A DNA stretch of 40,802 nt from Candidatus Methanophagales archaeon (lineage in GTDB: Archaea; Halobacteriota; Syntropharchaeia; Alkanophagales; Methanospirareceae), in assembly GCA_030612835.1 (NCBI GenBank), contig JAUWND010000003.1:1-40802 (forward strand), read 5' to 3'. Every line of letters starts with the position of its first letter. Position 1 is the first letter of the stretch. Shown piece by piece: positions 1 through 30,705 of the stretch. The notes under the pieces are model-generated. The model saw nothing but the letters and a program-made list of their open reading frames with translations, did not search any database and was not told the DNA's origin. The translations under genes were made by a program, and so were the position numbers.

Positions 1-492
1 GAATTATTAGCCGGACCCGGGTGTGACTGTCATAGGGTAAATACAACTGGTGTTGCTGTAGGTGGTTACGGCGGTAAAGCACCTGAGCCTGGTACCACAT
101 CTCACGCTGCGGAAACCATAGCCTGTATGATCTGTCATGAAGAGGGCACAGCGTATCCTTTCGCAGGTGGATTCAGTCAGACCGCGGTTGAGAAGTCAGC
201 AGGTGGAAGCACTACGCCATACACTTACAGTAGTGGTGGCATAGGTGGAGAGCATGCAGCTCACAATCAATTCATTGGACAAGCAATACACGACCCGTTG
301 ATGGAAGATTCGAACGAAGCGTGTATCGCATGCCACACAAGGGTCGGTGTGAACATCCAGTGGACGAAGAATACGATTATGAGCTTCGGGGCAGGTGAGG
401 ACGATCTTGGAGTCTGGACGGTCAGCGATTTCGCAGCGACAGGCGATGATATAACGAACGTGTCTTCTCCAAACGAATGGACAAATCAGTAA
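1..492 (+). CDS. Secreted multiheme cytochrome c, 5'-truncated by the window edge (paralog 1)
   Basis: Frame 1 is open from base 1: ELLAGPGCDCHR...HAAETIACMICH...AAH...EACIACHT. It aligns motif by motif with the next two genes. The ORF-track ATG at 127 lies inside the CMICH motif, so it is not the start. Confidence 0.9.
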   Translation, partial: ELLAGPGCDCHRVNTTGVAVGGYGGKAPEPGTTSHAAETIACMICHEEGTAYPFAGGFSQTAVEKSAGGSTTPYTYSSGGIGGEHAAHNQFIGQAIHDPLMEDSNEACIACHTRVGVNIQWTKNTIMSFGAGEDDLGVWTVSDFAATGDDITNVSSPNEWTNQ

Positions 493-504
493 ACCACAAC
501 CAAC

Positions 505-527
505 ATTTTTTTCTTTTTTATTTTTGG
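505..527 (+). terminator. Oligo-T tract, putative archaeal terminator
   Basis: T-rich run directly after the stop at 492. Confidence 0.4.
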
Positions 528-556
528 TATTGTGGGCAAAGTAGGGGGGCAAAGAT

Positions 557-1306
557 ATGAAGGGTAAAGGGATAGCATTACTGGCGATTGCGGTAGTCGC
601 AATCGGTATATTCGCACTGCCGAGTTCGGTTTCGCTCTTCAGCGGGCAGCATACGTGGTATGACGTTGGTGAATCTGTTGGTGGCACACCGGGGGCAAAT
701 AACGTGCCTTGTGAAAAGTGCCATGCTGAAATAGAGGAAGAGATGCTTAGTGACGATAACGGCGCACATGAGGGTTTGACCTGTTCTATGTGTCACAGGG
801 CTTACTTTACCGGTTATACATATGCCCTAGGCGGCTACAGCGTAGGTGCGACCGTGAAAGATCCAATACCTGGCCAAGAGGCGCATGCTGCATCCACGGT
901 CGAGTGCATGGATTGTCATGGCGCTTATGATCCAACGTCGTCTCACACGCAATACCCGGAATATGCCGGAAAGTGTGGGGATTGCCATCTTAATGGTAAT
1001 TATGGTGCGGAGTGCCTCGCAGCAGGCGGTTTTGGTTTGACACCTTATGTATCTGATACAGGCACAAAGGCGGCGCACAAGGTCTTCGTGGACGATTCGA
1101 TAAGCGAAACGCTGATGGAAGGTGCGAATGAAGCTTGTATCTCGTGCCACACGAGAATCGGTATGGACATCGAATGGACGAAGAGAGAGAATCTGAACTT
1201 CAATGCAAGTGAGAACCAGCATGGTACGTGGACGCTCAGCAACTTTGGGGCATCTGGTGATAACATGACACATGTGCGTACGCAGAATGCATGGACTAAC
1301 CCATAG
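557..1306 (+). CDS. Secreted pentahaem cytochrome c (paralog 2)
   Basis: Hydrophobic signal peptide followed by LPSSVSLFSGQHTWYD. Five CxxCH motifs: CEKCH, CSMCH, CMDCH, CGDCH, CISCH. Confidence 0.93.
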   Translation: MKGKGIALLAIAVVAIGIFALPSSVSLFSGQHTWYDVGESVGGTPGANNVPCEKCHAEIEEEMLSDDNGAHEGLTCSMCHRAYFTGYTYALGGYSVGATVKDPIPGQEAHAASTVECMDCHGAYDPTSSHTQYPEYAGKCGDCHLNGNYGAECLAAGGFGLTPYVSDTGTKAAHKVFVDDSISETLMEGANEACISCHTRIGMDIEWTKRENLNFNASENQHGTWTLSNFGASGDNMTHVRTQNAWTNP

Positions 1307-1427
1307 TAATTTATTTTATTTTATTTTGTTTTATATTATATTATATTATGTTATATTGCCCCAATCTTTTTTTTAAAAAAAATTGATCAAAATAAAACGG
1401 GCTAGATCTCCAAAAAGGTAAGAAGAA

Positions 1428-2189
1428 ATGAGTGGAAGTAAAATGGCTCTGATGCTGATAGCAGTAGTTGCAATAGGTATCTTCGCTCTTCCGAGCACGA
1501 TGTCCATATTGGGTGGACAGCATACCTGGTATGACATTGCAAGAGACGGTGTACCGTGTGTGAAGTGTCATGCCGACAAATATGAGGAGTTTTCTATGAC
1601 TGAGGTTCACTCGTCACTTGCAGGTAGACGTAGAGACTTGAGTTATGTTTGTTATGCGTGTCATAGGGCAGATCTGGATCTAACATATGCAGACGGAGGC
1701 GGCGGCGGTCCTCCCGGTGTACAGACACATGCTGCCTCTACAATTGCGTGTATGGCGTGTCATGAGTACGATGCACATGTACGCGACAATAATCAAGGAC
1801 CTTTTGCCGGTGGATTTGAGCAGCCCAGTGGCTCGCCGTTTAACTATGGTAGCGTAGGGGCTCCGCATCATGCAGCACATAACGCATACGTTCAGGGTGC
1901 GGTATATAGTGATTTGATGGAAGATTCAAACGAGGCATGCATTGCATGTCACACCGCCATTCCAATGGAAATAGACTGGAGGCTCGGGTACGCGATGCAC
2001 TCGCAATCGGTCGCTGACAGTTTAGGCGATTGGACAGTTGGACAGTTCAAGGCAGCAGGCACTTATGCTATAACTACATACAGTGATGGGTACGGCGATG
2101 ATCCAAGCACTACCGAGCCGTATATAGACCCTGATGTAACACCGTCCGTACCAGGGGGTAGTGGTGAGGATTGGTTGCTGCCACCGTGA
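1428..2189 (+). CDS. Secreted tetrahaem cytochrome c (paralog 3) with acidic Pro-rich C-terminal extension
   Basis: Signal peptide followed by LPSTMSILGGQHTWYD. Motifs CVKCH, CYACH, CMACH, CIACH. Confidence 0.93.
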   Translation: MSGSKMALMLIAVVAIGIFALPSTMSILGGQHTWYDIARDGVPCVKCHADKYEEFSMTEVHSSLAGRRRDLSYVCYACHRADLDLTYADGGGGGPPGVQTHAASTIACMACHEYDAHVRDNNQGPFAGGFEQPSGSPFNYGSVGAPHHAAHNAYVQGAVYSDLMEDSNEACIACHTAIPMEIDWRLGYAMHSQSVADSLGDWTVGQFKAAGTYAITTYSDGYGDDPSTTEPYIDPDVTPSVPGGSGEDWLLPP

Positions 2190-2301
2190 AGCCAATCCTG
2201 ATTCCGGAGCCTGAGGGGTTGTGGCGGGCCATCTAAGAACAAAACAAAACAAAAAATATTTATAAATGTAATACAATAGATAAATTAAGAAAGAGGAAAC
2301 A

Positions 2302-3063
2302 ATGGAACCATTTATAGAAGCGGTGATAACAGTTATTGCGGTTAGCGCATTCATAGCAGGGATTTTTTACGTTTTTTATTTGGCTGCGGTAAAGGGATCC
2401 GAATCGCCACTACGTTTGTATAACCGTTTTAAGAACGGCTACCGCGAGCATTCGCGTAATAAAAAGGTGAAAGAAAAGATGACCGAATACAAGACCTTTT
2501 CGGGCGTTGGAGCCCCCTCTTTTTTGCGATCTGCGCTACCATTCTGCGTGTTTATCGCTGTTATACTCATTCTTCTATTCAAGCTTGTCTTTCTCACTGC
2601 TATTGTCTCGAATAGCATGCAACCCACGTTCAAAAAGGGGGACCTTGTGCTCATGCAAAAAATAGCCACCGCGCCGGAAGAAGGTGACATAATCATGTTT
2701 ATGCACAAGGATATTATGCTCCCCGTTACGCATAGGGTTATCGCCGTAACTGATGAAGGAACAAAGACGGGGGGGGACGCGAGAGGGGTAACAGATCCCT
2801 GGATTGTGCAAAACGAAGCGATCATAGCTAAAGCAGTGCAGATGGGTGGCGGACCCATAGTACTGGAAGACGTTGGCAATTATTTCATTCTGGAGACAAG
2901 CAAAATGGGCTATGACCCCAAATATGGCTCGGAATATGCGTTTATGAGGAATATCTTTTCAATGCTGCGCTTGTATGGGTATATAGTGTGCGTTATTGCA
3001 GTCATGGGCTACGTGTTACTGTCTTTAAGTGAGAGGAAGAGGAGGGGAAATGTACAACTATAA
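2302..3063 (+). CDS. Signal peptidase I, S26 family (archaeal Sec11/SipW-like Ser-His type)
   Basis: Motifs IVSNSMQPTFKKGDLV (catalytic Ser), THRVI (His) and KTGGD, with flanking TM segments. Confidence 0.88.
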   Translation: MEPFIEAVITVIAVSAFIAGIFYVFYLAAVKGSESPLRLYNRFKNGYREHSRNKKVKEKMTEYKTFSGVGAPSFLRSALPFCVFIAVILILLFKLVFLTAIVSNSMQPTFKKGDLVLMQKIATAPEEGDIIMFMHKDIMLPVTHRVIAVTDEGTKTGGDARGVTDPWIVQNEAIIAKAVQMGGGPIVLEDVGNYFILETSKMGYDPKYGSEYAFMRNIFSMLRLYGYIVCVIAVMGYVLLSLSERKRRGNVQL

Positions 3064-3376
3064 GCGGATGCTTCTGTTTATTGGTCTCGTAGCCGCAATT
3101 ATCGCTGCCATGCCGAACACAATATCCTTGTTCGGTGGGGATCATACAATCCCACGTGAGGTCGCTTGTGAACGGTGTCATGAACCGCCCGAAGTGGGGT
3201 TATCAACTTTGGGCGGGTATCGGGGTGATGAATCCTGTGCTACCTGTCATCACTGTAATCTAGCCAATTACACAGCGATAAGAGAAAATGGCACGGGTGC
3301 ATGTACAGAATGCCATGAAATTGGCCTTGGGTGTCCACGTGTAGGGCGATTTACAAAAAATATACAAAATGACTGA
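3050..3376 (+). CDS. Small secreted trihaem cytochrome c
   Basis: ATG at 3050 follows a GAGGAGG-type RBS. Signal peptide followed by MPNTISLFGGDHT. Motifs CERCH, CATCH, CTECH. Overlaps both neighbours. Confidence 0.85.
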   Translation: MYNYKRMLLFIGLVAAIIAAMPNTISLFGGDHTIPREVACERCHEPPEVGLSTLGGYRGDESCATCHHCNLANYTAIRENGTGACTECHEIGLGCPRVGRFTKNIQND

Positions 3377-4184
3377 TGATATGCCACTAACCAGGATCAC
3401 AATGTCGATCGCGGAAAAAGTAGGCTTGGGTATTACAATAATCATAGCAATAATTCTAATTGGCTATGCCATTTTCTCTTTGCTAATAGACCTATTAATT
3501 TTGAATTTCGATTGGTTCGCCATTGCGATCGATTTATTATCGCTCGCTATTGGGATCGCACTTGGCTATTTCTCCATTCGTATATATAAGAAATCGGTAT
3601 ATTACGAGGGATTGGTGAATTCCGCGTTTGACGAGGGTGTATATGCGCGATTGGAACCGATACTGAGAAAAGTCGCGGAGACGCACGTTGAAATGGAAAG
3701 TTTAGGAAGTCGCTTAAATGTAATTGATCGTAAAGTTCAAACAGTCATAGACGAGCAGGTGAAATCGGAACCGCAAATAGAACTAGAAAAGGCGATTGCT
3801 CCTGGAACATCTATGGGTTTTATAATAAAAACCATCTTCTTAGCCATAATCACGATGTCCGGTTTTCTGTTCATGATATATACCTCAATTAGATATGCGC
3901 ATTTTGCTACACTTCTCTTTTTTATACTCTGGTGGTTGCTCATATCTTATGAATTTAAACTCGTTAATAACGCTACTGCATGGGTGATGGTCTTTGCCCC
4001 AATTCTTCTTATTCCCGTTAGCTTTATGGTACTTGGTACGCACGTTGACCCAAACAATCTGGTCGCTCTTTTTTATCTCGTCCTCGCATTATATGTGTTC
4101 TTATACTTCTGTTGGGCGGTATATGAGACAAAAGGGACGCTGCCTTTTAACCTCGACCTTAATAAATATTTAAAGCAGAAGTGA
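3369..4184 (+). CDS. Uncharacterised polytopic membrane protein (2 TM, coiled-coil loop, about 4 TM)
   Basis: 271-aa ORF with clear hydrophobic segments. Its start overlaps the stop of the upstream cytochrome. Confidence 0.8.
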   Translation: MTDDMPLTRITMSIAEKVGLGITIIIAIILIGYAIFSLLIDLLILNFDWFAIAIDLLSLAIGIALGYFSIRIYKKSVYYEGLVNSAFDEGVYARLEPILRKVAETHVEMESLGSRLNVIDRKVQTVIDEQVKSEPQIELEKAIAPGTSMGFIIKTIFLAIITMSGFLFMIYTSIRYAHFATLLFFILWWLLISYEFKLVNNATAWVMVFAPILLIPVSFMVLGTHVDPNNLVALFYLVLALYVFLYFCWAVYETKGTLPFNLDLNKYLKQK

Positions 4185-4236
4185 AAAACCGAAAAGTTTT
4201 TAAATAGATGTGTCACTATACAGATATAACGGAAAA

Positions 4237-4767
4237 ATGAACAAAAAATTAGTTTGTGCTGTTATAGCTATGGTAGCGGTAATAGGTGTAATAGCCGGCT
4301 GTGCTGAGGGACCAGCGTCGGAAGAGGCCACGCCTGCGCCGACTGTGGCACCAACCGCACCGCCGACTGTGGCACCAACCGCACCGCCGGGTATGGTAAT
4401 GGCGACAAGTTGTGAGATGTGCCATAAGATCGAATCGACAGCCAAGTTGGCTAAACATGTAAAGGGCGGGCAATTGGTCAATGGTAAACCAGGCTGTTTC
4501 GGCTACTGGGGCTGTCATGGCATGGGTAATGCTACCGTACATACGGTCCATCCACCAGGAGAAGTTGGATGCGCAGCATGTCATGGCACAGAGACACCTA
4601 CGATTCCACCGAAAGGTGCAGGCGGGACAACATGTGAGCTATGCCACGGATATCCAAAGCCATTAGAGCCAAGCGAAGGAAACCTCGTCTGGATACACCA
4701 GGATAGGGGCAAGGACTGCACAGTTTGTCATATCGGTGAGATCTCAGAGATACATGGGCTGGAATAA
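4237..4767 (+). CDS. Lipoprotein multiheme cytochrome c with Pro/Thr/Ala linker
   Basis: MNKK, hydrophobic core and lipobox IAGC. Motifs CEMCH, CAACH, CELCH, CTVCH plus extended CFGYWGCH. Confidence 0.9.
   Translation: MNKKLVCAVIAMVAVIGVIAGCAEGPASEEATPAPTVAPTAPPTVAPTAPPGMVMATSCEMCHKIESTAKLAKHVKGGQLVNGKPGCFGYWGCHGMGNATVHTVHPPGEVGCAACHGTETPTIPPKGAGGTTCELCHGYPKPLEPSEGNLVWIHQDRGKDCTVCHIGEISEIHGLE
4338..4389 (+). repeat. Perfect 24-bp tandem duplication encoding (PTVAPTAP)x2
   Basis: GCCGACTGTGGCACCAACCGCACC occurs twice, followed by GCCG. Confidence 0.95.
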
Positions 4768-4797
4768 AACAGCCCTCTATTTTTTTTCTTTTCTAAC

Positions 4798-5085: not shown

Positions 5086-5125
5086 CTAACTAACTAACTA
5101 ACTAACGTAACGTAAAGTAACTAAC
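5086..5125. repeat. Degenerate (CTAA)n/(GTAAC)n microsatellite between convergent genes
   Basis: ctaactaactaactaactaacgtaacgtaaagtaactaac. Confidence 0.75.
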
Positions 5126-5170: not shown

Positions 5171-6268
5171 TTATGGATATGGCAATTGCTGCGATAAAAT
5201 AAAAGCGATACTATAGGCCAGGTAAGCGAGGGCTAGGGCACCACCTGCTTCCGGCATCTTCGGCGCTGAGAAAGAAGATGTGGTATTCTCTGTTTCTTCT
5301 TCTCCGTAACGGTTGTCAACGAAAAGTTGTTTTACCAAGTCCGTACCTGGGATACTAACTTTATATTGTCCTGGAATGTCCTTTGTTACCTGATAAAAAA
5401 GTGTCTTTGATTCCTTATAGTCTAAAGTGACCGATTCCTCAAATTCTATCTTATCATTTAATGCCAGAGCAATCTTTTCTGTTCCCCTCATCCCGTCATT
5501 CTTTACGGTTACAGATATTGAGACGGTTTCATTGGGCTTGACCGTAGATGGGCTCATACGGAAATCAGTTACCGTGAATTTCGATTTTGGAGATATTTTC
5601 TTTTCTAGCTCTTCCCTCTCTTCCATCTCTTCTTCGCGAGCCACGAAAAAATTGAGGTATGTTATTTCCATTAACGAATCCTCATATCTTTTTATTACAC
5701 CTAAGTCCTCCAAATCGTCTTCATTGCCATCACACACGTTATTAAAGAGATCTTCTACGTCTTCAAAATCATATTCTTTATTCTTCTTCTCTTTATCCCT
5801 CTTGCCTTCATCCAACAGCTTATTAAGAGTGCTTGGCACAATCACTTCTCGCTCCCATTCATTTATTCTCGCCTTGTTAAGACAGTTGTACGCAGCTATC
5901 TTGATTCTATATTTGCCATACCGCCACCATGAGGGGATATCTTTTGTGTACTCTACATATACCGTGTAATTGCAATCCCGGCGTCTCACATCCATACGGC
6001 TAAGTGACATTATGTCACCCATGGAATTCTCAATGATAAAAACGAAATCAACAAGTACAAAGTCCTTATGATTTACGCCACTCATTTCCGTGTACACCTT
6101 GAGTGTATCCCCATGTGTGAATGTATTATCCCTGGGCACGTAATCATACAAACCAATGACGTCGGAAACTATCGCCGCCTTCTCCGCGCTTGCAACATTG
6201 ACGGCGGAAAAGCCGGCTAACAGCAATAGCACCAAAATAGCTAATATGCTTCTTTTACATCCCCTCAT
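5171..6268 (-). CDS. Secreted/surface protein with CARDB/Ig-like domain; C-terminal anchor probably frameshifted (true stop 5121)
   Basis: Signal peptide ending VASA. CARDB-like segment VKPNETVSISVTVKNDG...PGQYKVSI. The hydrophobic tail continues in another frame to a stop at 5121. Confidence 0.8.
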   Translation of the reverse strand: MRGCKRSILAILVLLLLAGFSAVNVASAEKAAIVSDVIGLYDYVPRDNTFTHGDTLKVYTEMSGVNHKDFVLVDFVFIIENSMGDIMSLSRMDVRRRDCNYTVYVEYTKDIPSWWRYGKYRIKIAAYNCLNKARINEWEREVIVPSTLNKLLDEGKRDKEKKNKEYDFEDVEDLFNNVCDGNEDDLEDLGVIKRYEDSLMEITYLNFFVAREEEMEEREELEKKISPKSKFTVTDFRMSPSTVKPNETVSISVTVKNDGMRGTEKIALALNDKIEFEESVTLDYKESKTLFYQVTKDIPGQYKVSIPGTDLVKQLFVDNRYGEEETENTTSSFSAPKMPEAGGALALAYLAYSIAFILSQQLPYP

Positions 6269-6406: not shown

Positions 6407-7060
6407 ATGAAAATATTCGCATTGCTAGTCGTGGTATTCATTGCAGCAGTTGTATTCACCGGTATGGGCGGAGGGGAAGAGGTAATTCCACCAAATCCCA
6501 GGGGATTCATAGGGAGTTGGCATCCCGCGCCCGAGTGCGGACAGTGTCACGTCTCGCTTCTCTCAAAAGAGGCGTTGCTTGCAAAGCTTGGGTCTTGCAA
6601 CTGTCATCGAGAGGCATATACTTCTGCGGGTGCGATAGACGGAGATAAGATAAGAAAGAACGCACATGGTAGCATGGTCTGTATTGATTGCCATGTAGGG
6701 AGCGGAATAGCAACCAGCGGAGGTGAACTCCCATGTGATGATCTCCATAGGCTTCATAGTCCTGTTGACTGTCAGGCATGCCATGATGAAGGGGCGAACA
6801 TTTTGATACCGGCAAGTGGAAATTGCAATCTCTGTCATCGCGGTGATGCGCATGCAATTCATGGTGATAATACGGGCAATTTATGCGTTTCCTGTCACGG
6901 CTCGTTTGGGATAGAATATAAGGAGAAGGGGTATATATTAATAGAAGGCGTCCCGATGGAGCAGGAATCAGAAGAAATGACTTATCCTACTATAACTAAC
7001 ATATTTAAAGCCGTTATAAACTTGATTATAAAAGGGTCAGAAGAAGGAGGTGCGCAATGA
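6407..7060 (+). CDS. Exported multiheme cytochrome c
   Basis: N-terminal signal/anchor. Motifs CGQCH, CIDCH, CQACH, CNLCH, CVSCH plus CNCH and CDDLH variants. Confidence 0.9.
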   Translation: MKIFALLVVVFIAAVVFTGMGGGEEVIPPNPRGFIGSWHPAPECGQCHVSLLSKEALLAKLGSCNCHREAYTSAGAIDGDKIRKNAHGSMVCIDCHVGSGIATSGGELPCDDLHRLHSPVDCQACHDEGANILIPASGNCNLCHRGDAHAIHGDNTGNLCVSCHGSFGIEYKEKGYILIEGVPMEQESEEMTYPTITNIFKAVINLIIKGSEEGGAQ

Positions 7061-7482
7061 AGAAGAGTATTGTTATTGTGGTTTTTGTAGTTATTCTAAT
7101 TCTCGTAGGTCTTCTTGCGATTTCGTTTCTCGCAAAAGAAGTACCAATTCTTAACGTTCAGGCTGAGGTGACGGTGACTGATGACAAGCCTGCAATAGAA
7201 ATCGTGCAGTTGGAACAAGAGTACGTGCATCCATTGCAGAGCCCACGGGGCGGTCCTGATACTGGTTTTCCGGGTGTCGATGCAGTTGCAATAATCAACA
7301 ATTCAAAAATGAGCTACTGGCCTGCAAAGGATTATCATGGTAATGGCACCTATGATTTGGTAATCGGCTTTCATCGGGATGCCCTACCGAAAGAGGGCGA
7401 CATGGTAAAGGTGGTTGTAAAGGTAGTGGATGTGCGGGGGCGTACCTTGGCAACAGATGTAGAAGTTATGTTATGGGAGTAA
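7057..7482 (+). CDS. Uncharacterised N-terminally anchored beta-rich protein, coupled to ccmF
   Basis: ATGA overlap with the upstream gene, GGAGG RBS, and a 3-nt gap to ccmF. Confidence 0.78.
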   Translation: MKKSIVIVVFVVILILVGLLAISFLAKEVPILNVQAEVTVTDDKPAIEIVQLEQEYVHPLQSPRGGPDTGFPGVDAVAIINNSKMSYWPAKDYHGNGTYDLVIGFHRDALPKEGDMVKVVVKVVDVRGRTLATDVEVMLWE

Positions 7483-7485
7483 AAA

Positions 7486-9447
7486 ATGGAAATAGCAGGA
7501 CTCCTCATATCTTTCGCTTTGATCTTCCCCTGGCTCGTGCTGTCAGCTTGCATCTTACTGGTTCTTGATTTTATCATGTTGTTAAAGGCGAAGGCAAAGG
7601 GGAAGAAGATTTCGGAACTCGCATTTATCGCCTTTTCCATTGCTTGCGTGATCGTGGCAGCCACATACATCATGCTCACTCAATCATTCGTGAGTGACAT
7701 CTTTTCGTTGAAAGAGGTTTATACGTATAGCTCATCCGGCTTGACCCTCCCGTATAAAGTGGGCGGCCCGTGGATAGGGAGCAGCGGGTCAATGCTATTT
7801 GTAACTTTCTTCTTAGTGCTCGTATATTTCGTGTTCAGGTTTAAAGGATTAGGAAAAGAAAGCGAGTCTCGCACCACCACATACAAAATACTGGACCTCT
7901 TCCTCATCTTCCTCCTTCTCGTCACCTTACTTCAGAGCCCTTTTGAGCGCCTACCCATAGTGCCCCCGGACGGTGCAGGGCTCAATCCACTGTTGCAAAC
8001 GTTTTGGGTGCTTGTGCATCCGCCCGTGATCTTTTTAGGATACGTATTTGTCTTCTTCGCTTTCGCACTGACGCTGGCGGGGATGATAACAGGCGAGAAG
8101 GAAGAACTAAGAGCGCCACTAAAATGTTCCCTGTATGCAGCCTGGCTGTTTTTGGCGCTTGGGATTGCGCTCGGCGGGTGGTGGTCATACGAAGTTCTCG
8201 GCTGGGGTGGCTACTGGGCTTGGGACCCGGTGGAGACGGCATCGTTACTGCCCTGGTTCGCTCTTACGGCATATTTCCACTTGCCGCCTAAGAGCAAAGA
8301 TCTGGCGAAAGAGTTCACGCTCATGGTTTCGTTTGTTATGATCATCTTCGCAACCGCACTTACTCGGGGCGGGTTATTGGAGTCGGTTCATGCGTTTGGA
8401 AAATCTCCTGTCGGACCCGTACTTCTGGGCTTCGGGTTTTGCGTTCTATTATTCTTCGTCTATCTTGCGGTAAGGGCGAAAAAACCGCTTTATACCTTTG
8501 ATATTGACTTTTCTTCGCTTCATTCTGTATCTATCTTAGTCGCTTACTGGTCGCTGATGTTTTTGTTGATTATATGCTTCTTCGGCGATGCCGCACCAAT
8601 AGTAGGTGGCATTTTCAGCGAGAAGACCATGAGCGCAACCGGTGTAGAATTTTATAACCGATGGTGCTTCCCATTTACGCTCGCTTTTGTAGCCGCTTTA
8701 TTGGGTTGCAACGTCGCCCTGAAATTAGAGCGATGTCTTATGCTAATCATAGCTGTACTGGGTATTGGGCTAGTTTTAGCATTGCTCGGTGGGCCAACGC
8801 CGAATCCACTGATGAATTTCGGACTCCCGCTTCTGCTAGTCGCGGGATTTGCTATCGCTTATAATTCCGCTAAGGTAATGCAAAAGCGGAATTCATTGCA
8901 TTTATGGGGCAAAACCCTTATTCATCTCGCAGTCATCATAATACTATTAGGTGTTTTTTTCAGTGCAGTTGATGCTGCTAAGAACCCAAGAAGCTTTGTC
9001 GCAACGCCAAATTCCACTAAAGATATTTTAGGGACACAAATAGAATTTGGGAATTTTACTATCTATACCGGCATGGGGCGCGTTTTCTATCCACAGCATG
9101 TTTTCGTAGGCCCGGAATACTCAGCGCTAAAAATGGATGTTACGATTAAAGAAGGCGGGGATGTTCATCACAGAGCTCTCTGGATGTATCACTATGCAAA
9201 TCATGGGATCGTGTCTGAGCCTTTAATCATCTCCACTCTCGCGGGGGACATATATGCATCCATGCACCCCACCGCATCCAGCCATAATTCTTCCTTTTAT
9301 GCCATTATGGGCGTGGAAGTCCAGCCGGAAGATTTTGTCGTCAAGATAAAAAAGATCCCCCTGATATGGCTTCTCTGGTTCGGGATAGTTTTAATGGGAA
9401 TTGGGATGGTTGTACTGCTAGTCGGAGAACTAAAAAGTAAAAAATAA
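7486..9447 (+). CDS. ccmF: Cytochrome c biogenesis haem lyase CcmF/NrfE
   Basis: WWD motif WGGYWAWDPVETASL, plus GLNPLLQ...HPP and TRGG..SVHAF; many TM helices. Confidence 0.95.
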   Translation: MEIAGLLISFALIFPWLVLSACILLVLDFIMLLKAKAKGKKISELAFIAFSIACVIVAATYIMLTQSFVSDIFSLKEVYTYSSSGLTLPYKVGGPWIGSSGSMLFVTFFLVLVYFVFRFKGLGKESESRTTTYKILDLFLIFLLLVTLLQSPFERLPIVPPDGAGLNPLLQTFWVLVHPPVIFLGYVFVFFAFALTLAGMITGEKEELRAPLKCSLYAAWLFLALGIALGGWWSYEVLGWGGYWAWDPVETASLLPWFALTAYFHLPPKSKDLAKEFTLMVSFVMIIFATALTRGGLLESVHAFGKSPVGPVLLGFGFCVLLFFVYLAVRAKKPLYTFDIDFSSLHSVSILVAYWSLMFLLIICFFGDAAPIVGGIFSEKTMSATGVEFYNRWCFPFTLAFVAALLGCNVALKLERCLMLIIAVLGIGLVLALLGGPTPNPLMNFGLPLLLVAGFAIAYNSAKVMQKRNSLHLWGKTLIHLAVIIILLGVFFSAVDAAKNPRSFVATPNSTKDILGTQIEFGNFTIYTGMGRVFYPQHVFVGPEYSALKMDVTIKEGGDVHHRALWMYHYANHGIVSEPLIISTLAGDIYASMHPTASSHNSSFYAIMGVEVQPEDFVVKIKKIPLIWLLWFGIVLMGIGMVVLLVGELKSKK

Positions 9448-9471: not shown

Positions 9472-10089
9472 CTATTTGTGTTTCCCCGGTGGATGACAGA
9501 CAGTACAGGTTTCTTCCGTAACGTCTACATCGTGGTCGTTGTGACATGCCACACACTCGTGTCCCTCATAACTGGGGCTCTCGTGGCCGACGTATTCACT
9601 GATTCTATGTGTCGTGTGCTTGATTGTAGGATGGCATTTAAAGCACGAGATAGTGGGGTCAGCGATTTCTTCTGGCGGTGTTCTGTGCTTACTATGGCAC
9701 TCCATGCAATGTTCCACTTTTGGAGATGCCGGTGGCTCCTGTTCTATGTGATCTGCCAGCGCTTCAAGAGCTTCGTTTGTGTCGCTTCCCTCCATCATCG
9801 CTTCCGCTATCGCTTCCGCATGGTGCGTGGCATGCCCCATGTACATGAACATTTCTATCCCATGCGGGTGATGGCAATCGTGACAATCCTCTATGTGATT
9901 ATGCACTGAATTTTGATGGGAGATCAAAAAATACTCCATCTCATGACAGTTCGAAGCACAGCTCTCCGGTTTTTCCATCTCTTCCATCATTGCAGGCATT
10001 ATAAATACCGCGCCAATCGCCGCACCGATGATGACACCGAGAGTAACCACTACGACCAATCCAATAATCACCTTCTCACCAAGTTCCAT
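9472..10089 (-). CDS. Membrane-anchored multiheme cytochrome c, NapC/NirT-like N-terminus
   Basis: Single N-terminal TM, then CASNCHEM...SVH...CHDCH, then CMECH, CFKCH, CVACH, CTVCH. ATG at 10089 follows GGAGGAG. Confidence 0.87.
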   Translation of the reverse strand: MELGEKVIIGLVVVVTLGVIIGAAIGAVFIMPAMMEEMEKPESCASNCHEMEYFLISHQNSVHNHIEDCHDCHHPHGIEMFMYMGHATHHAEAIAEAMMEGSDTNEALEALADHIEQEPPASPKVEHCMECHSKHRTPPEEIADPTISCFKCHPTIKHTTHRISEYVGHESPSYEGHECVACHNDHDVDVTEETCTVCHPPGKHK

Positions 10090-10220
10090 ACGCACTCCTC
10101 CTAATTGTACTTTTCACTTTCATTTATTTTATATATCACTACTCCAAAAGGTGTTAATCACCTTTTAGCAAGGAGCACATATAAACTTTTCGCTTTTTTA
10201 TCACGAGAAAGAAAAATCAG

Positions 10221-15439: not shown

Positions 15440-16453
15440 ATGACGGCTAAATGTATTTGGATTTGGAAGGGCTTCTCAGTCATTTTGGCATTATACGTTA
15501 TCTTGCTTCTGGTGTCGCCTTCTATTGCAGGTGCATGTCCCACGGGAGTTAGTTGTAGCTGCAGTGATGATGCCGCCTTTGGTGCGGCCCTTAGCGCAGG
15601 CATGAAAATCCCTAATGAAGAAGCAGGAATGCCGGCATACACAAATGTTAGTGAGATGTTGACATACACAAACGCGGAATACAACTTTTCAATTGGCTAT
15701 CCCCATGATTGGACAGTGCAAGAAAACCTTCTGGACACTGAGGTGATATTCTCCGGGCCGATAGAGGATAATTACACGATAAACGCGAACGTAAGAACAG
15801 TAGAACTACCAGACGACACAATTAATGGCGAACCTGTTTCGGGGCATATAATTAGAACCACAACGGATGAAGGGATTGACGTTAAACATATGCAAGCATG
15901 TTTCGTACGTAATAGAACAGCATATGTAATAGGATTCACTGCTGCATCGAGCACATTTGATACTGCAGAAACGGATTACTTTGTGCCCATGTTACAAAGC
16001 TTTAAGTTCATAGAAGAAGCGGTTGGAATAGAGATTTCAGTAACAAACCAGTCTAAAGTCTTGGAAGGTGGTAATTTCACTGCATTTGTAACAGTAAATG
16101 ATGCTACTAACTTCACAATATTTCTGTTTAAGCTGAACTATGATTCTTCGGTCATAGAGTTAATCGAAGTCGAAAAGGGATTTGATAGCCCAACATCTAG
16201 TAGCTCTACATGGCTGAGGTGGGGTGATAAGGAAAAAGGCACAGTGCAAATTATCGCTTACTCTGATCCATTTGGGACGCTAGTTAACGGATCCGCGGAA
16301 CTCGTAAGGTTTGAGTTCCATGTTGTTGGACGTGCAGGAGAAAAAAGCGTTCTTGATATTCAAGGGATTATTGGTGATTCCGCTATGGAATCAATAGAAA
16401 CGATATGGGTGGACTCGGAGGTTACAGTCACGTCTGGAGAGGCACTGTCTTAA
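15440..16453 (+). CDS. Secreted protein with PsbP-like and cohesin-like domains; last codons supplied by a MITE
   Basis: Signal peptide; YNFSIGYPHDW (PsbP-like); FKLNYDSSVIE...GSAELVRFEFHVVG (cohesin-like). Confidence 0.75.
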   Translation: MTAKCIWIWKGFSVILALYVILLLVSPSIAGACPTGVSCSCSDDAAFGAALSAGMKIPNEEAGMPAYTNVSEMLTYTNAEYNFSIGYPHDWTVQENLLDTEVIFSGPIEDNYTINANVRTVELPDDTINGEPVSGHIIRTTTDEGIDVKHMQACFVRNRTAYVIGFTAASSTFDTAETDYFVPMLQSFKFIEEAVGIEISVTNQSKVLEGGNFTAFVTVNDATNFTIFLFKLNYDSSVIELIEVEKGFDSPTSSSSTWLRWGDKEKGTVQIIAYSDPFGTLVNGSAELVRFEFHVVGRAGEKSVLDIQGIIGDSAMESIETIWVDSEVTVTSGEALS

Positions 16454-18670: not shown

Positions 18671-19519
18671 ATGAGCGAAGAAGAAGAAAAAGCAGAAGAA
18701 AAGAACTTGAGCATTTTTCTGTGCTTAGGTATGGCTGTTTTACTCGTGCTCACACAAGTAATAGCAGTACTGCTTGCAGCACCATTTGCAGCTTCGGGCA
18801 TAAAAGCTTTTCAAGATCCGGAGTCAATATGGAATACCGTATACTTCTTTATCCTTATTATAGGGTTCACCGCACTTATACTTCTAGTGCTCAAATTTGG
18901 GGGCGATAAACTTGTTCAGTTCATAATGCTCGCTGCGGTGGCAGTAACGATGTATTATGTAATGGCTGTTCTTGTTCCTTATGGCTATGTCCCGATAGTT
19001 ATCACTATCGCACTTACTGTTCTCCTCTATATATATCCGGAATGGTATATCCTCGATGCGACAGGATTGGTAATAGGGGGCGGTGCGGCAGCGATGTTTG
19101 GTATCTCGCTTAACATAATTCCTGTAATACTCTTGATGATACTATTGGCGATATATGATGCGATTTCGGTGTATAAGACGAAGCACATGGTATCATTGGC
19201 GGAATCCATCGTGGCTATGCGATTGCCGATCCTTTTTGTTCTGCCGCGGAAGCGGAATTTCTCTATTGTGAAGAATAGCGATATGGGGGAAGCGTTCTTC
19301 ATGGGACTTGGCGATGCGATTATACCGTCTATGTTAGTTGTGTCTGCGTTTGTGAACTACACAAGTGCAGCACCTGCGTTGGGTGCGGCACTAGGCACTT
19401 TAGCGGGTTATGCGGTACTGAGCAGAATTGCAGGCCGAGGGAAGCCGCATGCCGGACTGCCGTTTCTTAATTCCGGTGCGATAATTGGGTTTGTCATAGG
19501 ACTAGCTCTGCTTGTTTGA
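18671..19519 (+). CDS. Presenilin/SPP-like intramembrane aspartyl protease (PSH)
   Basis: YD motif (AIYDAISV), GLGD, and PHAGLPFLN (PAL equivalent). Confidence 0.93.
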   Translation: MSEEEEKAEEKNLSIFLCLGMAVLLVLTQVIAVLLAAPFAASGIKAFQDPESIWNTVYFFILIIGFTALILLVLKFGGDKLVQFIMLAAVAVTMYYVMAVLVPYGYVPIVITIALTVLLYIYPEWYILDATGLVIGGGAAAMFGISLNIIPVILLMILLAIYDAISVYKTKHMVSLAESIVAMRLPILFVLPRKRNFSIVKNSDMGEAFFMGLGDAIIPSMLVVSAFVNYTSAAPALGAALGTLAGYAVLSRIAGRGKPHAGLPFLNSGAIIGFVIGLALLV

Positions 19520-21818: not shown

Positions 21819-23510
21819 ATGAGAAAACAAGGATCAAAACCAACGAAATCACGATTTGAAATCTCGAAAATATCATCAACAGCAAAAGATAACAAAAAAT
21901 CTTCCCGCAGCGAATCCACAGAGACCACACAAAAAGAACACAACGAACGATGCCCTGATTGCAAGGATACAATTGAACGAATGCTCAAACAGATTTATGG
22001 CGATGTAAAACCGAATTACAAATTTAGAACTGGCACAAATCCAGAAGATTTCAGCGATAACCCATTTTATGACGATCTCCAGAGAATATATGAAAATCTC
22101 CAGAATTATAGGGGAAACAAAAACTTTGTGATTACGGATACACTACCCAACTGCGATTATTATGTTCCGGATCTAGGATTTGTTCTGGAATTTGATGAGT
22201 CTCAACATTTTACAATGCCACGAAAAATAGCACTGCTGAGCTATCCCTATAAATCACGATCTGGCTTTTCATTGGCACAATGGATTTCTACGTGCGATAA
22301 AATCAAAGCTCATGATCCGGATCCAATATACCGTGATGAGCAGCGTGCATGGTATGACACGCTAAGAGATTTTCTGCCTGAGTTCAAAGGTCTGGAACCC
22401 ACCGTAAGGCTTTATTCAAACGAGATGCAGTGGTGTAGCTTAAATCCTGATAATCGTGATGACATTGCACACTTCAAGGCCATTATTGAAGCCAGAAGAA
22501 GAGCGATAACTAACTGGATCGCCACAGTAGTCATCAAAAGCGGCTTTTGTAGCCTGGATGCTAAGTTTAAAGCGGACCTGAATATTAATCCAATCTCCGC
22601 TAATTTAAAAGCGGAATTAGATGCTAAGAAATTCACACTTACCGCAGCTGCAACAGTCACAGAGGAGCGAACGGATAAATGGACGATACACGATGGAAAT
22701 ACGATCTATAGCGCCTATAACGAAGATGAACGGCTGACTGTTTACAAATGCCATAACGAAGACCGGCTGAACGTTCTATCTAACGTTGTACAATCCATTG
22801 TGAAACGATCTACAGGCGATGGCGTCATTCTATTCCCCGCAGGCATGTTCTATACCGAAGAAAAACCGGCAAGCACATACTATAACAGAGTACAGGAAAC
22901 GCTCATACCCGTTCTCAAACAGACAACCAGCCATATCATTGTCTGCACAGGCGTAGATAGTGCCCGGGATCAGATCGCCTTAGCAATAGACAAAACCGGC
23001 ATCATCGCTAAAGGTCGTAAATTCTACACCGCGCCAGGTGAAGATCAAATAGAACTCGCACCGAATTATTCAACAGAAGAAGACGGTAAATCGCGTAGAT
23101 TCGAGCTGAACGACACCCGCTATTACATGTGCGTCTGCTACGACATCTTTGGGCTCCGGCATAAAGACCTGCACAATCCCGGAGTAGATGTCGTCCTGAA
23201 CCTGGTGCACTGTTTCTATCAGCCTGGAAAAGGCCCGTGTGGTTTAGCACTTTTTGCTAAACACGGCCTTGCAGGCGCATCGAAACAATGGAAATGCCCC
23301 GTATTTGCTGCAGTAATCTTTTTCAAACCGAACATCCCCACGCAGTGGCCTACTGGCGTATACTGGAACCAGGGCGATAAGAGCACCCGATTCTGGCGAT
23401 ATTCGGATAACCCGATCAAACCTGCGAATAACTTTGAAACAGAAATCGAAGAAGGTGTGGCTCTGGTTAGAATGTATAAACATCCGGGATTGGTGGCTCC
23501 GGCACAATAA
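21819..23510 (+). CDS. Fusion of a PD-(D/E)xK-like nuclease domain and a carbon-nitrogen hydrolase (nitrilase-fold) domain
   Basis: N half: CDYYVPDLGFVLEFDESQHF...QRAWYDTLRD. C half: VILFPAG, RKF, CVCYD. Confidence 0.7.
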   Translation: MRKQGSKPTKSRFEISKISSTAKDNKKSSRSESTETTQKEHNERCPDCKDTIERMLKQIYGDVKPNYKFRTGTNPEDFSDNPFYDDLQRIYENLQNYRGNKNFVITDTLPNCDYYVPDLGFVLEFDESQHFTMPRKIALLSYPYKSRSGFSLAQWISTCDKIKAHDPDPIYRDEQRAWYDTLRDFLPEFKGLEPTVRLYSNEMQWCSLNPDNRDDIAHFKAIIEARRRAITNWIATVVIKSGFCSLDAKFKADLNINPISANLKAELDAKKFTLTAAATVTEERTDKWTIHDGNTIYSAYNEDERLTVYKCHNEDRLNVLSNVVQSIVKRSTGDGVILFPAGMFYTEEKPASTYYNRVQETLIPVLKQTTSHIIVCTGVDSARDQIALAIDKTGIIAKGRKFYTAPGEDQIELAPNYSTEEDGKSRRFELNDTRYYMCVCYDIFGLRHKDLHNPGVDVVLNLVHCFYQPGKGPCGLALFAKHGLAGASKQWKCPVFAAVIFFKPNIPTQWPTGVYWNQGDKSTRFWRYSDNPIKPANNFETEIEEGVALVRMYKHPGLVAPAQ

Positions 23511-23765: not shown

Positions 23766-24185
23766 TCACCTCGCTGATGCTTTCACCACCATCGTCAACA
23801 CATTCTTGCCATCCTTAAACTCATACTTGACCTCATCCACCAGCGTCTTCATGAAATATACCCCGAGTCCACCTATCTTCCGCTCTTCTAAACTCGCATC
23901 CAGATCTGGCGGAGGGACCGACGTGGGATCAAACGGCTTACCTCTGTCTTTGATGACCACTAGGACATCCTCACCACTTCTCCGGCAGGAGATATTAATC
24001 ATGCCCACATCTACGGTGTAGCCGTAGTTGATAATGTTAGTGCATGCCTCGTCAACAGCCATTTGAATCTCGAATATCTTACGATCCGCCAACCCAAATT
24101 CACGCATCGAATCAGTGATGAAATCACCTATCACCGCTAATTTCTCCAATTTCGATTCTATCTCGAGTTCAAACAGGTCTTCCAT
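23766..24185 (-). CDS. RsbW/SpoIIAB-like anti-sigma Ser kinase (HATPase_c)
   Basis: AVDEACTNIINYGY, IKDRGKPFDP and GGLGVYFMKTLVDEV. Confidence 0.93.
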   Translation of the reverse strand: MEDLFELEIESKLEKLAVIGDFITDSMREFGLADRKIFEIQMAVDEACTNIINYGYTVDVGMINISCRRSGEDVLVVIKDRGKPFDPTSVPPPDLDASLEERKIGGLGVYFMKTLVDEVKYEFKDGKNVLTMVVKASAR

Positions 24186-24194
24186 TTGTAATAT

Positions 24195-25559
24195 TCACTC
24201 TGCCTTCAATGCCATTAACGTAATATCATCAAATTGCGGCTCATCGCCACAGAAAGCTAACACTTCCCCCTTTATCTTCTCTATCATATCATCTGCAGAT
24301 AATTCATGATTCACCTTAATAGTCCTAATGAGTCGCTCTTCCCCAAACTGCTCCATGCTCTTATTTATCGCCTCGGTCACACCATCGGTATAGAAGACGA
24401 TTATATCACCACCGTCCAGTATGATCTTTCGCTCTTCCAGTTCTATATCCTCTATTGCGCCCAGCGCGATCCCTTTCGCATCGAGCCGCATTAGAGTTCT
24501 GGTCTTCGCTTTGAAGATCACCGGTGGGTTATGCCCTGCACTGACGTATGTCAACGTCCTCTCGCTCACATCTAATACCGCATAGAATAACGTAACGAAC
24601 ATACCTGATTTCGCATCTGCCGTGATCAAACTGTTCGCATCGCGTATTACCTCACTCACGCCAGAACTACGCGTTGCTTTCGCCCGGACTATCGTTCGTG
24701 ATAGCGCCATGAAAAGTGCGGCTGGAACGCCCTTGCCAGAGACATCAGCAATCGTGAGCCCGATCTTACCTTCCGAGATAGGGATGAAATCATAGAAATC
24801 TCCGCCAACCTCTTTCGCCGGAATATTCTGTGCTGCAAGCTCGAAACCCGGTAAATCTGGTATAGCATCAGGCAAAAAGCTCTGTTGTATGTCATGTGCC
24901 ATTTTTAATTCATACCGCTTTCGTTCCAGCTCAGCGGAGTATTTATCGCGCTCTTCCGCCGTCTCCAGCTCTCTTATCCGATTTGAAATGATGTATGCGA
25001 AGAAGAACATACCCAAAGAATTGGCGAAGATCATAGGTATGCTTACTTCCTCAACTACCTTAACCGCTTCTGAATATGGGTGCGCAAGGATAAGTGCAAG
25101 AATCATGTGGACTGATTCCATAAGGGCTGCAAATAGTACTGCTCCGGGAACGCCAATGAACTTGCCTCTTCTTAATATATATATAATACCCCCGAATAGT
25201 CCTGCAAGCACGGTGGCAAGTGAGCAGGGGACGCAGGTAAAGCCACCTAAGAAGTACCGATGTATGCCACCAATCAGTCCCGCACCCAAGCCGATCACAG
25301 GCCCACCAATTAATCCTGCGATCATCGGACCAAGGTCTCGGACGCTTGCAATCGCGCCGAATATCTCTATACCGGAGTAGGTGCCGAATATAGAGACCGC
25401 ACCGAAGATTAAAATAAAAATAGCACGATTTTTTAGCGTGAATTTTTTATCCAGGATCTCTCTGAAATATTTGGTGCGTGAGATCAGATAGGCGATTACC
25501 ACAATTACACATATCTTCTCGACCAGCACAAGTAAAAGCTCGATTATGGGATATGCCAT
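24195..25559 (-). CDS. 5TM-5TMR_LYT sensor fused to a SpoIIE/RsbU PP2C phosphatase
   Basis: LytS-type SIFGTYSG...RDLGPMIAGLIGGP...GGIHRY. PP2C motifs VGGDFYD, ADVSGKG, YTDGVTEA, DDIT. Confidence 0.93.
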   Translation of the reverse strand: MAYPIIELLLVLVEKICVIVVIAYLISRTKYFREILDKKFTLKNRAIFILIFGAVSIFGTYSGIEIFGAIASVRDLGPMIAGLIGGPVIGLGAGLIGGIHRYFLGGFTCVPCSLATVLAGLFGGIIYILRRGKFIGVPGAVLFAALMESVHMILALILAHPYSEAVKVVEEVSIPMIFANSLGMFFFAYIISNRIRELETAEERDKYSAELERKRYELKMAHDIQQSFLPDAIPDLPGFELAAQNIPAKEVGGDFYDFIPISEGKIGLTIADVSGKGVPAALFMALSRTIVRAKATRSSGVSEVIRDANSLITADAKSGMFVTLFYAVLDVSERTLTYVSAGHNPPVIFKAKTRTLMRLDAKGIALGAIEDIELEERKIILDGGDIIVFYTDGVTEAINKSMEQFGEERLIRTIKVNHELSADDMIEKIKGEVLAFCGDEPQFDDITLMALKAE

Positions 25560-25643
25560 TTAATTCACCTTATATAATATAATTGACCCATATTACATTT
25601 ATTCTATAATTGTATTACTAAAGCTAATGTCTTTAAAATTACA

Positions 25644-27365: not shown

Positions 27366-27371
27366 TTATAA

Positions 27372-27713
27372 TCACACGCCCCGGGAGCTATTTACAGCCT
27401 CTTCCTCTTGTTCATAGATCGCAAATAGCTGTGTAAAGCCCGCGATGTCGAAGACCTCTTTTACATATGGCTTTAAACACGCTAATTTCAAATCTCCTTC
27501 CGCCTTCTTCAACCGCTTCAGTGATGCAAGCATCACCCGCAATCCCGAGCTGCTGATATAGTCCACGCCATCGAAATTCACGACTATTCTCACACTGCCG
27601 TTATCAATCAGTGTGCTTATACTTCGCTCTAGCTCGTTTGATGAATATGCATCAAGCCTGCCGTTCAAGGTCAATATCGCCACATTACCCTCCTTTTTTT
27701 CTTCTAGTTTCAT
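27372..27713 (-). CDS. STAS anti-anti-sigma factor (RsbV/SpoIIAA-like)
   Basis: GRLDA and VDYISSSGLR (phosphorylatable Ser). Confidence 0.93.
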   Translation of the reverse strand: MKLEEKKEGNVAILTLNGRLDAYSSNELERSISTLIDNGSVRIVVNFDGVDYISSSGLRVMLASLKRLKKAEGDLKLACLKPYVKEVFDIAGFTQLFAIYEQEEEAVNSSRGV

Positions 27714-28657: not shown

Positions 28658-28681
28658 TTCTTCTCTTTTTCTTCCATTCTA

Positions 28682-28747
28682 TAACCACAAGATTACGCAG
28701 ATTTTCACGAGATTCTTCTGTGTTAATCTTGTGTAATCTCGTGGTTT
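28682..28747. repeat. REP-like periodic palindrome, family 2 copy
   Basis: TAACCACAAGATTACGCAGATTTTCACGAGA...TCTGTGTTAATCTTGTGTAATCTCGTGGTT. Confidence 0.87.
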
Positions 28748-28763
28748 CTTACCCAGAAGCCAT

Positions 28764-29249: not shown

Positions 29250-29587
29250 GCACCTCCTATTATTTTATCCATAACAATCTCCACTTTACCTTCCAGCATA
29301 TCGCCCATGAACTCCAAAGCCATTTTCGCATCCTTACACCCGCATGACGCCATCTCCACGAATATCATATTCTCTTCCGGATACGTATGGACTGCGATAT
29401 GGCTCTCGGCAAGCAATACAACCGCCGTCATACCCTGTGGCGAGAACTTATGGCTGACTGTTTCCAGTAACGTCAAATCCATCATCTTCGCCGCTTTCAT
29501 TAAAATCCCCTCTATCAACATAACATCTTCCATCTTTTCCACGCTGCAATGTGTTAATAGTCCTATAAGCACTTGAATCTTTGCCAT
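29246..29587 (-). CDS. speD: S-adenosylmethionine decarboxylase family pyruvoyl proenzyme
   Basis: HKFSPQGMTAVVLLAE-SHIAVHTYPE with self-cleavage site E/SH. Confidence 0.85.
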   Translation of the reverse strand: MAKIQVLIGLLTHCSVEKMEDVMLIEGILMKAAKMMDLTLLETVSHKFSPQGMTAVVLLAESHIAVHTYPEENMIFVEMASCGCKDAKMALEFMGDMLEGKVEIVMDKIIGGA

Positions 29588-29592
29588 TTTAT

Positions 29593-30689: not shown

Positions 30690-30705
30690 TTTTTATTTTA
30701 GCCCC

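Follow-up and report, generated by a model that had tools for sequence, protein, structure and literature searches.

The window analyzed here comprises the first 40,802 nucleotides (40.8 kb) of contig C50 (G000:C50:1-40802) of an archaeal genome of 2.5 Mb that is 86% complete. It opens with a cluster of genes for multiheme cytochromes, a signal peptidase and a polytopic membrane protein. A gene for Mtd lies in the same window, and the closest relatives belong to the Methanophagales, that is, to the anaerobic methanotrophic archaea of group 1 (ANME-1). Seven genes, all on the plus strand, occupy positions 1 to 4767, and the first three of them (ecnA, ecnB and ecnC) encode proteins that, to judge by alignment, are clear homologues of the subunit of the extracellular cytochrome nanowire (ECN) of Archaeoglobus veneficus (AvECN). 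The genes and the elements between them are as follows.

1-492, plus strand: ecnA (3′ 163 codons), A-type ECN-family cytochrome with two CxxCH motifs and a CxCH motif (GCDCH) at heme site 2
557-1306, plus strand: ecnB, B-type ECN-family cytochrome of 249 residues with five CxxCH motifs and an N-terminal signal peptide
1428-2189, plus strand: ecnC, C-type ECN-family tetraheme cytochrome of 253 residues, matching 8e5g_A
2259-2266, plus strand: TATA-box-like element TTTATAAA, read by eye, 36 nt before the start codon of pep
2302-3063, plus strand: pep, archaeal (ER/SipW-like) signal peptidase I of 253 residues (TIGR02228, Pfam S26)
3029/3050-3376, plus strand: small cytochrome of 108 residues (ATG at 3050) or 115 residues (GTG at 3029) with three CxxCH motifs
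3369-4184, plus strand: memb, orphan polytopic membrane protein of 271 residues, characterized by hydropathy and alignments
4210/4237-4767, plus strand: cyt185, lipobox multiheme cytochrome with four CxxCH motifs, last gene of the suggested accessory operon
about 4773-4790, plus strand: T-run TTTTTTTTCTTTTC after cyt185, putative archaeal terminator, read by eye

ECN-family cytochromes and the accessory genes beside them

In a three-way alignment, EcnA, EcnB and EcnC were 45-47% identical, with HAA, CMxCH, AAH and EACIxCHT among the invariant columns. When all PDB chain sequences were searched, a single strong match was obtained, 8e5g_A (E 4.6e-42 with EcnC and 2.3e-30 with EcnB), and BLASTP against this chain gave 41% identity over 198 residues for EcnC, 35% over 240 residues for EcnB and 42% over 129 residues (E 2e-27) for the EcnA fragment. 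According to two papers that mention it, 8E5G is a filament of A. veneficus. The exact 8e5g_A sequence was found over its full length (262/262 residues) as an open reading frame (ORF) of genome G109 and was used for direct alignments, in which the similarity spanned the signal peptide and the whole heme core and the last 55-65 residues were unrelated. Indeed, four CxxCH motifs and four further histidines (H32, H61, H101 and H151 in EcnC numbering) were invariant in a 22-member family alignment, and all eight sites are also present in 8e5g_A; four CxxCH motifs plus four further histidines are the count required for four bis-His hemes. Hydropathy analysis of EcnB and EcnC revealed one hydrophobic segment (residues 1-30) in each and none at the C terminus. 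The family as a whole comprised 490 clusters at an E value of 1e-5 or better.

An earlier reading of this DNA (the original prediction) had described three tandem, secreted, paralogous cytochromes with a common HAA/CxxCH/AAH/EACIxCHT core and no membrane anchor, and had taken them as candidate nanowire proteins. The paralogues lie where they had been placed, and both the family assignment and the lack of an anchor were borne out by the searches and the hydropathy profiles above. Its account of the heme motifs holds for the shared core only: EcnB carries five CxxCH motifs instead of four, the fifth being an extra CGDCH within a loop insertion, and EcnA has CxCH at site 2. The latter is a regular trait of A-type proteins, since GCxCH or TCxCH replaced the second CxxCH in 11 of 11 A-type orthologues (e.g., L008:5877-6581, L024:6983-7702 and L027:6986-7711), whereas a CxCH of any kind was present in 5 of the 92 remaining ECN-like ORFs; a single whole-word search of the literature for CXCH as heme c motif yielded nothing relevant. 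In a tree of 134 ECN-like ORFs, ecnA, ecnB and ecnC fell into separate, well-supported orthogroups of 14, 15 and 6-8 rows, respectively, which extend across ANME-1 genomes, and an A gene is paired with a B gene in six or more further loci. Thus, the paralogues are old and have been kept apart by selection. The C-type gene is, in the relatives, the one directly upstream of pep. It is plausible from these sequence relationships that A, B and C are alternative major filament subunits.

Frames with at least three CxxCH motifs numbered 10 in the whole genome (27,529 stop-to-stop frames of at least 40 residues), and since the first 10.1 kb of the window hold six of these 10, their clustering is not due to chance. 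On its 5′ side ecnA is cut by the contig end; the missing 5′ part, with the same signal peptide, was found at the end of contig C157, and public contigs of three runs (X1, X3 and X4) extend beyond window position 1 into this signal-peptide sequence. Genes for an IS66-family transposase and a DDE_Tnp_4 transposase are located at 2436-3824 of C157 (locus L086, G000:C157), about 2-3.5 kb upstream of the ecnA start (near contig base 203), and may explain the assembly break near ecnA. A gene for a fused NirDL/AhbAB-like siroheme decarboxylase, an enzyme of alternative heme synthesis, was also seen upstream of ecnA, both on C157 (L086, 636-1655, minus strand) and in the two closest relatives of the window locus (L008:3316-4335 and L010:3525-4544), and six further loci have split versions next to A-B ECN pairs, which suggests that heme supply is linked to the cytochrome genes.

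The accessory genes are tightly packed. Depending on the start of the small cytochrome, for which ATG at 3050 is conserved and GTG at 3029 is the alternative, pep overlaps it by 14 or 35 nt, and the small cytochrome overlaps memb by 8 nt. T-runs read directly from the spacers were also present 3′ of ecnA (about 506-525) and of ecnB (about 1310-1375), and the spacer behind each of the three ecn genes is T-rich. Since a T-run follows cyt185 as well and TTTATAAA precedes pep, the layout suggests that the ecn genes are transcribed separately and that pep, the small cytochrome, memb and cyt185 form one accessory operon, with TTTATAAA as its putative promoter and the T-run at 4773-4790 as its putative terminator. 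The coordinates of the overlapping genes for an S26 peptidase, a small triheme cytochrome and a polytopic membrane protein were confirmed as originally predicted. The operon end that had been placed at 4184 has to be moved downstream, to cyt185 and the T-run behind it. Cyt185 is built from a lipobox (IAGC), a Pro/Thr-rich linker and a multiheme domain, and a homologue was encoded directly 3′ of memb in 18 of 29 loci.

A signal-peptidase-type site, LPSxxS, lies just before LFxGQH in the ECN-family proteins, and cleavage there, as predicted from sequence, would create an N terminus from which the invariant His is six residues away. The motif P[SGNQA][STA]x[SACG][LIVM][FLM]xGxH was found in 5 of the 27,529 frames of the genome, i.e., in ecnB, ecnC, the small cytochrome, a paralogue on contig C93 and the C157 fragment of ecnA; the non-ECN cytochromes of the locus do not have it. 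In the family alignment, the fraction of majority residues was 0.79 for signal residues 8-27 vs. 0.60 for the mature core, or 0.55 when the heme motifs were left out. Sec signal peptides are not usually better conserved than the mature part behind them, and such conservation would fit a private peptidase that recognizes this region. The possibility of a class III (type IV pilin-like) signal was also considered and was rejected, since the [KR][GAS] cleavage context is missing from the family consensus.

The product of pep scored 65.7 bits with TIGR02228 (archaeal signal peptidase I; cutoff, 51.85) and 32.4 bits with Pfam S26 (cutoff, 22.9). With the SipW model NF046067 it reached 39.8 bits at a cutoff of 190; Pep is thus not a SipW member and by these scores would resemble SipW at most in the way it works. 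Ser105, His144, Asp159 and D165 were invariant in nine peptidase sequences, among them the housekeeping paralogue. Three hydrophobic segments are present, and N- and C-terminal membrane extensions are common to the clade of Pep. The second copy in the genome is this housekeeping signal peptidase I of 179 residues, encoded next to a ribosomal protein gene on contig C128; pep is therefore an extra copy. A presenilin-type signal-peptide peptidase (PF06550, E 4.9e-73) is encoded at 18671-19519 (plus strand), 14 kb from the cluster. Peptidases of this class clear cleaved signal peptides from the membrane.

Memb did not match any Pfam or NCBIfam family, and its relatives amounted to 75 cluster representatives among 1.84 billion. 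The protein has about six transmembrane helices and a charged helical insert (residues 76-148), a loop that contains no Trp and is probably cytoplasmic according to the positive-inside rule. A WW pair inside a hydrophobic stretch is invariant, and none of the His residues is kept throughout the wider family. The AlphaFold2 model of Memb had a predicted local distance difference test (pLDDT) score of 53.5, and a fold search of the PDB with this model gave generic helical hairpins and bundles with Z values of at most 9.4, which is below the meaningful level for helical proteins; a search of the ESM Atlas gave no usable match. Domain fusions among 22 scanned relatives (TPR in three, a beta-propeller in one and Yip1 in one) provided no clear functional lead.

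Downstream of the operon, the following genes complete the cytochrome region.

6407-7060, plus strand: cyt217, cytochrome with five CxxCH motifs
7057-7482, plus strand: p141, small secreted protein
7486-9447, plus strand: CcmF-type heme lyase (profile match)
9472-10095, minus strand: further cytochrome, non-ECN

In addition, a CcmC-sized match was found on contig C87. Genes similar to cyt217 adjoin ECN genes in other loci. In genome G109 (L127, G109:C1:73500-78000), the 8e5g_A gene is followed on the same strand by a gene for an ECN-like protein of 272 residues with five CxxCH motifs and by a cyt217 homologue of 217 residues, also with five CxxCH motifs (E 7e-25), and hence the cyt217-type cytochrome is ECN-linked in both of the archaeal classes surveyed below.

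Co-occurrence of pep and memb with ECN genes

For the comparison of gene order, 76 ECN loci were fetched from species-representative genomes, drawn from the best 80 of 158 matches. The full order of ECN gene, pep, small cytochrome, memb and cyt185 was found in 5 of the 76 loci, and in 11 loci the distance between pep and an ECN gene was at most 7 kb; the remaining loci are mostly extra ECN arrays of genomes with several arrays.

The co-occurrence survey covered 175 genomes from two archaeal classes, the class of the window (79 genomes, this one included) and a second class that was reached from an Archaeoglobus locus (96 genomes). In the own class, ECN genes were present in 39 genomes, pep in 34 (31 full-length genes, two contig-end fragments and one weak match that may be the housekeeping enzyme) and memb in 35. 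All 34 pep-positive genomes were ECN positive, and so were 34 of the 35 memb-positive genomes. The second class gave the same picture, with ECN genes in 34 genomes, memb in 35 and the strong pep clade in 36 (E 2.6e-34 or better, vs. 5e-14 or worse for housekeeping matches), each of the two accessory genes being present in 32 of the 34 ECN-positive genomes. In five regions from complete genomes of the second class, pep and memb were adjacent and convergent in every case, and an ECN gene lay within 1.4 kb in three.

If pep and memb served c-type cytochromes in general, they should also be present in genomes that have the cytochrome c maturation (Ccm) system without ECN genes. The Ccm marker PF01578 was detected in 55 of 79 genomes of the own class and in 92 of 96 of the second class. 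Among the Ccm-positive, ECN-negative genomes of the own class (n = 17), pep was found in none and memb as one weak partial match; four of these 17 are from the genus of the window itself and lack all three genes. In the second class (n = 59), pep was found in four and memb in three such genomes, so that the 76 genomes of both classes contained pep four times and memb three times plus the one weak partial match. This rarity argues that the pair follows the ECN family or a co-traveller of it rather than c-type cytochromes generally. Pep and memb track the ECN family rather than cytochrome c maturation, which is a pattern and not a statistic, since related genomes are non-independent.

Conserved linkage of the nanowire genes to a peptidase, for which the original prediction had proposed a synteny survey, was indeed found, with a second, clade-specific peptidase, both in gene order and at the level of whole genomes. 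Its notion of a self-contained assembly operon was not upheld: the Ccm system (CcmF in the window, the CcmC-sized match on C87) is needed, the operon runs on to 4767, and pep and memb are found elsewhere in G109 and in several genera, where they lie on different contigs.

Readings of the locus

Taken together, homology, gene order, co-occurrence and motif restriction lead us to regard the locus, with moderate confidence, as the ANME-1 version of an archaeal AvECN-type cytochrome-nanowire locus. In this case, EcnA (the CxCH variant), EcnB (pentaheme) and EcnC (tetraheme) would be Sec-exported multiheme proteins, probably separately transcribed, to which the Ccm system encoded nearby would attach heme outside the membrane. 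The conserved signal peptide (...AIGIFALPSxxS/LFxGQH..., the slash marking the cut) would be removed by the cluster's own peptidase and not by the housekeeping enzyme on C128. By analogy with the homologous AvECN, the mature proteins would then polymerize into extracellular filaments with a continuous heme stack, and such filaments may carry electrons from the methane-oxidizing cell to a partner. The accessory operon would supply the processing step and a membrane-proximal module, which may be a platform for assembly, a helper in export or the point at which electrons enter.

Several observations weigh against this. The AlphaFold2 model of EcnC (22-row alignment, no heme) had a pLDDT of only 42.8 and is unusable as structural support, and since the C-terminal 55-65 residues differ from those of AvECN, the filament interface is perhaps not conserved. 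The co-occurrence was seen in related and thus non-independent genomes, and ECN genes may merely mark a wider electron-export gene set. Moreover, pep was missing from 5 of 39 ECN-positive genomes of the own class (these five are 51-92% complete) and from 2 of 34 of the second class. In G109, which encodes the exact 8e5g_A sequence, the shortest distance of pep and memb from that gene is about 330 kb when the single 1.9-Mb contig is treated as circular; physical linkage is thus not needed for filament formation. Finally, the pair of peptidase and membrane protein with the label "8x TMH" was read as general maturation factors of multiheme cytochromes by Chadwick et al. 2022 (PMC9012536), and the physiological role of archaeal ECN filaments is unresolved according to a Nat Commun 2026 paper.

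A more specific version of the nanowire reading, which we consider rather unlikely in all its parts, would make Pep and Memb a dedicated export and assembly machine that reads the AIGIFALPSxxS signal. Cleavage would free the LFxGQH arm, whose His would ligate a heme of the neighboring subunit, and polymerization would thereby be licensed; A-B pairs would build mixed or alternative wires, with the CxCH heme site in the A subunit. Conversely, Pep and Memb might be a general maturation module, as proposed by Chadwick et al. 2022, that processes, or handles heme for, all exported multiheme cytochromes, with the ECN-like proteins being soluble or surface-bound shuttles and not polymers. Although the pair is unlinked to the 8e5g_A gene in G109, the cluster also holds non-ECN cytochromes (cyt185, cyt217 and the 9472-10095 gene) together with CcmF, and an invariant WW as in Memb is a feature of heme-handling proteins, we regard such a module as improbable, in view of nearly all Ccm-positive, ECN-negative genomes lacking both genes, of a signal motif that is confined to ECN paralogues, of the large Memb loop with its lack of Trp and probable cytoplasmic position, and of a closest solved relative that is a filament.

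The small cytochrome aligned with EcnC residues 5-85; in common with ECN proteins it has the signal motif, an N-terminal GxH and heme sites 1 to 3, but it lacks heme 4 and the other conserved ECN histidines; by this alignment it is a truncated ECN paralogue. A decaying pseudogene was ruled out for the genus-level group, in which the ratio of nonsynonymous to synonymous substitution rates (dN/dS) between close relatives was 0.20-0.49 for the small cytochrome vs. 0.30-0.46 for pep and memb. Since its predicted mature part has three CxxCH motifs but only five His and lacks Met, at least one heme would be without a ligand from its own chain, and in a modeling preprint at least one His ligand from an adjacent subunit is reported as needed in all filaments treated except OmcZ. 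Together with its dN/dS, which is like that of its neighbors, these features would suit a minor tip or base subunit, as had been suggested originally, which would cap one filament end via its ECN-type N-terminal His arm; however, heme site 2 is gone from the homologous gene of L014, and sites 2 and 3 are gone from that of L011, and other lineages have in its position a full-length ECN-like gene together with a gene for an ECN-like protein of 360-450 residues with 6-10 hemes, which argues for a recent truncation rather than a conserved component and makes the capping role very doubtful.

ECN-like proteins of 360-450 residues (6-10 CxxCH motifs, same N-terminal motif) are encoded after ECN genes in many loci, often with an overlap (L015:9504-10655; L028:3225-4307, minus strand; L038:4258-5517; L068:6710-7894; L041:7672-8946; L056:2122-3426; L069:1954-3309). 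They end in a conserved C-terminal YTEPN or SEPSG and are absent from the window; a role as conserved partner or anchor is possible.

Surroundings, known systems and prior work

Between the two cytochrome blocks, a gene at 5171-6268 (minus strand) encodes a secreted protein of 365 residues, in which a CARDB-like domain was weakly matched and the long middle part is acidic and rich in Glu, Asp and Lys. Noncoding DNA of about 400 nt flanks the gene and contains short CTAA/CGTAA repeats at about 5088-5125. Farther downstream, the window contains a gene for a cohesin-domain protein (15440-16453, plus strand; PF00963, E 5e-11), an ORF of 563 residues that matched no Pfam family (21819-23510, plus strand) and a membrane-stress cluster with PspA/IM30, PspA-associated, DUF350 and DUF4178 genes (27372-31257, minus strand), which is adjoined by a partner-switching set of STAS, SpoIIE-phosphatase and anti-sigma-kinase-like genes (23766-27713).

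The AvECN filament of A. veneficus (PDB 8E5G) was reportedly described by Baquero et al. in Cell in 2023, and the abstract of that work is said to mention homologues in Methanoperedenaceae, Syntrophoarchaeales and Borgs. The window proteins share with AvECN the family (35-42% identity), an N-terminal signal sequence, four CxxCH motifs, four extra histidines and the lack of an anchor. They differ in their unrelated C-terminal tails, in the fifth heme site of EcnB and in the CxCH at site 2 of EcnA; three paralogue types lie directly upstream of the pep operon in the window, whereas the pair is far off in the 8e5g_A genome, and AvECN is a solved filament, whereas filament formation by the window proteins is predicted.

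Bacillus subtilis dedicates an ER-type signal peptidase I with a C-terminal membrane extension to a fibre subunit whose gene lies in the same operon, tapA-sipW-tasA. The window may follow the same principle, in that a subunit of a filament family is encoded with an ER-type peptidase; however, its subunits are cytochromes and not TasA-fold proteins, and Pep stays far below the SipW cutoff. In the nanowire clusters of Geobacter and Desulfuromonas (omcE; OmcZ), subunit genes are likewise clustered with accessory genes and a protease is needed for OmcZ maturation, but the subunit folds and the accessory proteins (beta-propeller lipoproteins, a beta-barrel) are unrelated, and the envelope is diderm.

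The pair of pep and memb has been noticed before. According to PMC9012536, all ANME groups as well as Syntrophoarchaeum, Argoarchaeum, Geoglobus and Ferroglobus have conserved a signal peptidase and "8x TMH", and the same pair was noted there in the ANME-1 cytochrome cluster of a 2010 metagenome (the fosmid cluster of Meyerdierks et al. 2010, cited here after Chadwick et al. 2022). The orthologues in L008 were 86% (Pep) and 89% (Memb) identical to the window proteins. L008 Memb is RCV62945.1 with the tag C5S53_16290, which is listed as "8x TMH" in the S2 Data of PMC9012536, and L008 Pep is RCV62946.1, which corresponds to the S2 Data entry "Peptidase" (C5S53_16295) if consecutive accessions carry consecutive tags; Pep of L015 is PXF50407.1, the peptidase listed for GB37 in PMC9012536. 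By these identities, the window pep and memb are orthologous to the "signal peptidase" and "8x TMH" genes of Chadwick et al. Their reading as general maturation factors was made before ECN structures were available, whereas here the pair tracks the ECN family and not Ccm; in ANME-1 Memb we counted about six transmembrane segments rather than eight and saw no Trp-rich outer loop. PMC9012536 also places a group of small multiheme cytochromes of matching distribution among the most highly transcribed ANME genes, and it is plausible that the highly transcribed four-heme cytochromes of GB37 and GB60 are ECN genes.

Cytochromes of Methanophagales (ANME-1) were placed in a clade with MmcX and AvECN in PMC11176372. 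MmcX of "Ca. Serpentinarchaeum aceticum" Met12, from the same clade of cytochromes with 3-5 hemes, was described there as very highly expressed in situ and as restoring electron uptake in a Shewanella mutant; it is a single gene that was tested in Shewanella, and the word "peptidase" does not occur in PMC11176372. A cluster of ECN homologues was furthermore drawn for an ANME-2d archaeon in the Nat Commun 2026 paper. For an earlier description of ECN genes and pep together in ANME-1, our literature searches turned up nothing beyond the articles that are cited here; the Cell 2023 paper may cover gene neighborhoods. The idea behind the original prediction is thus new only in part, since the pair was published in 2022 (PMC9012536) and ANME-1 was placed in the AvECN clade in 2024 (Nat Commun, PMC11176372). 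What is added here is the tracking of ECN genes by pep and memb across 175 genomes, the signal motif restricted to ECN proteins, the small cytochrome as a truncated paralogue and the conserved CxCH of the A type.

On its own, the locus does not alter the picture, since the literature already covers these gene families, the way they cluster and what they probably do. ANME-1 archaea transfer electrons to sulfate-reducing partners, and the secretion and assembly of any cytochrome nanowire are described as an open question in an mBio 2026 paper. In this locus, members of a proven filament family stand beside two accessory genes that follow the family through two archaeal classes, which makes pep and memb candidates for its maturation and assembly.

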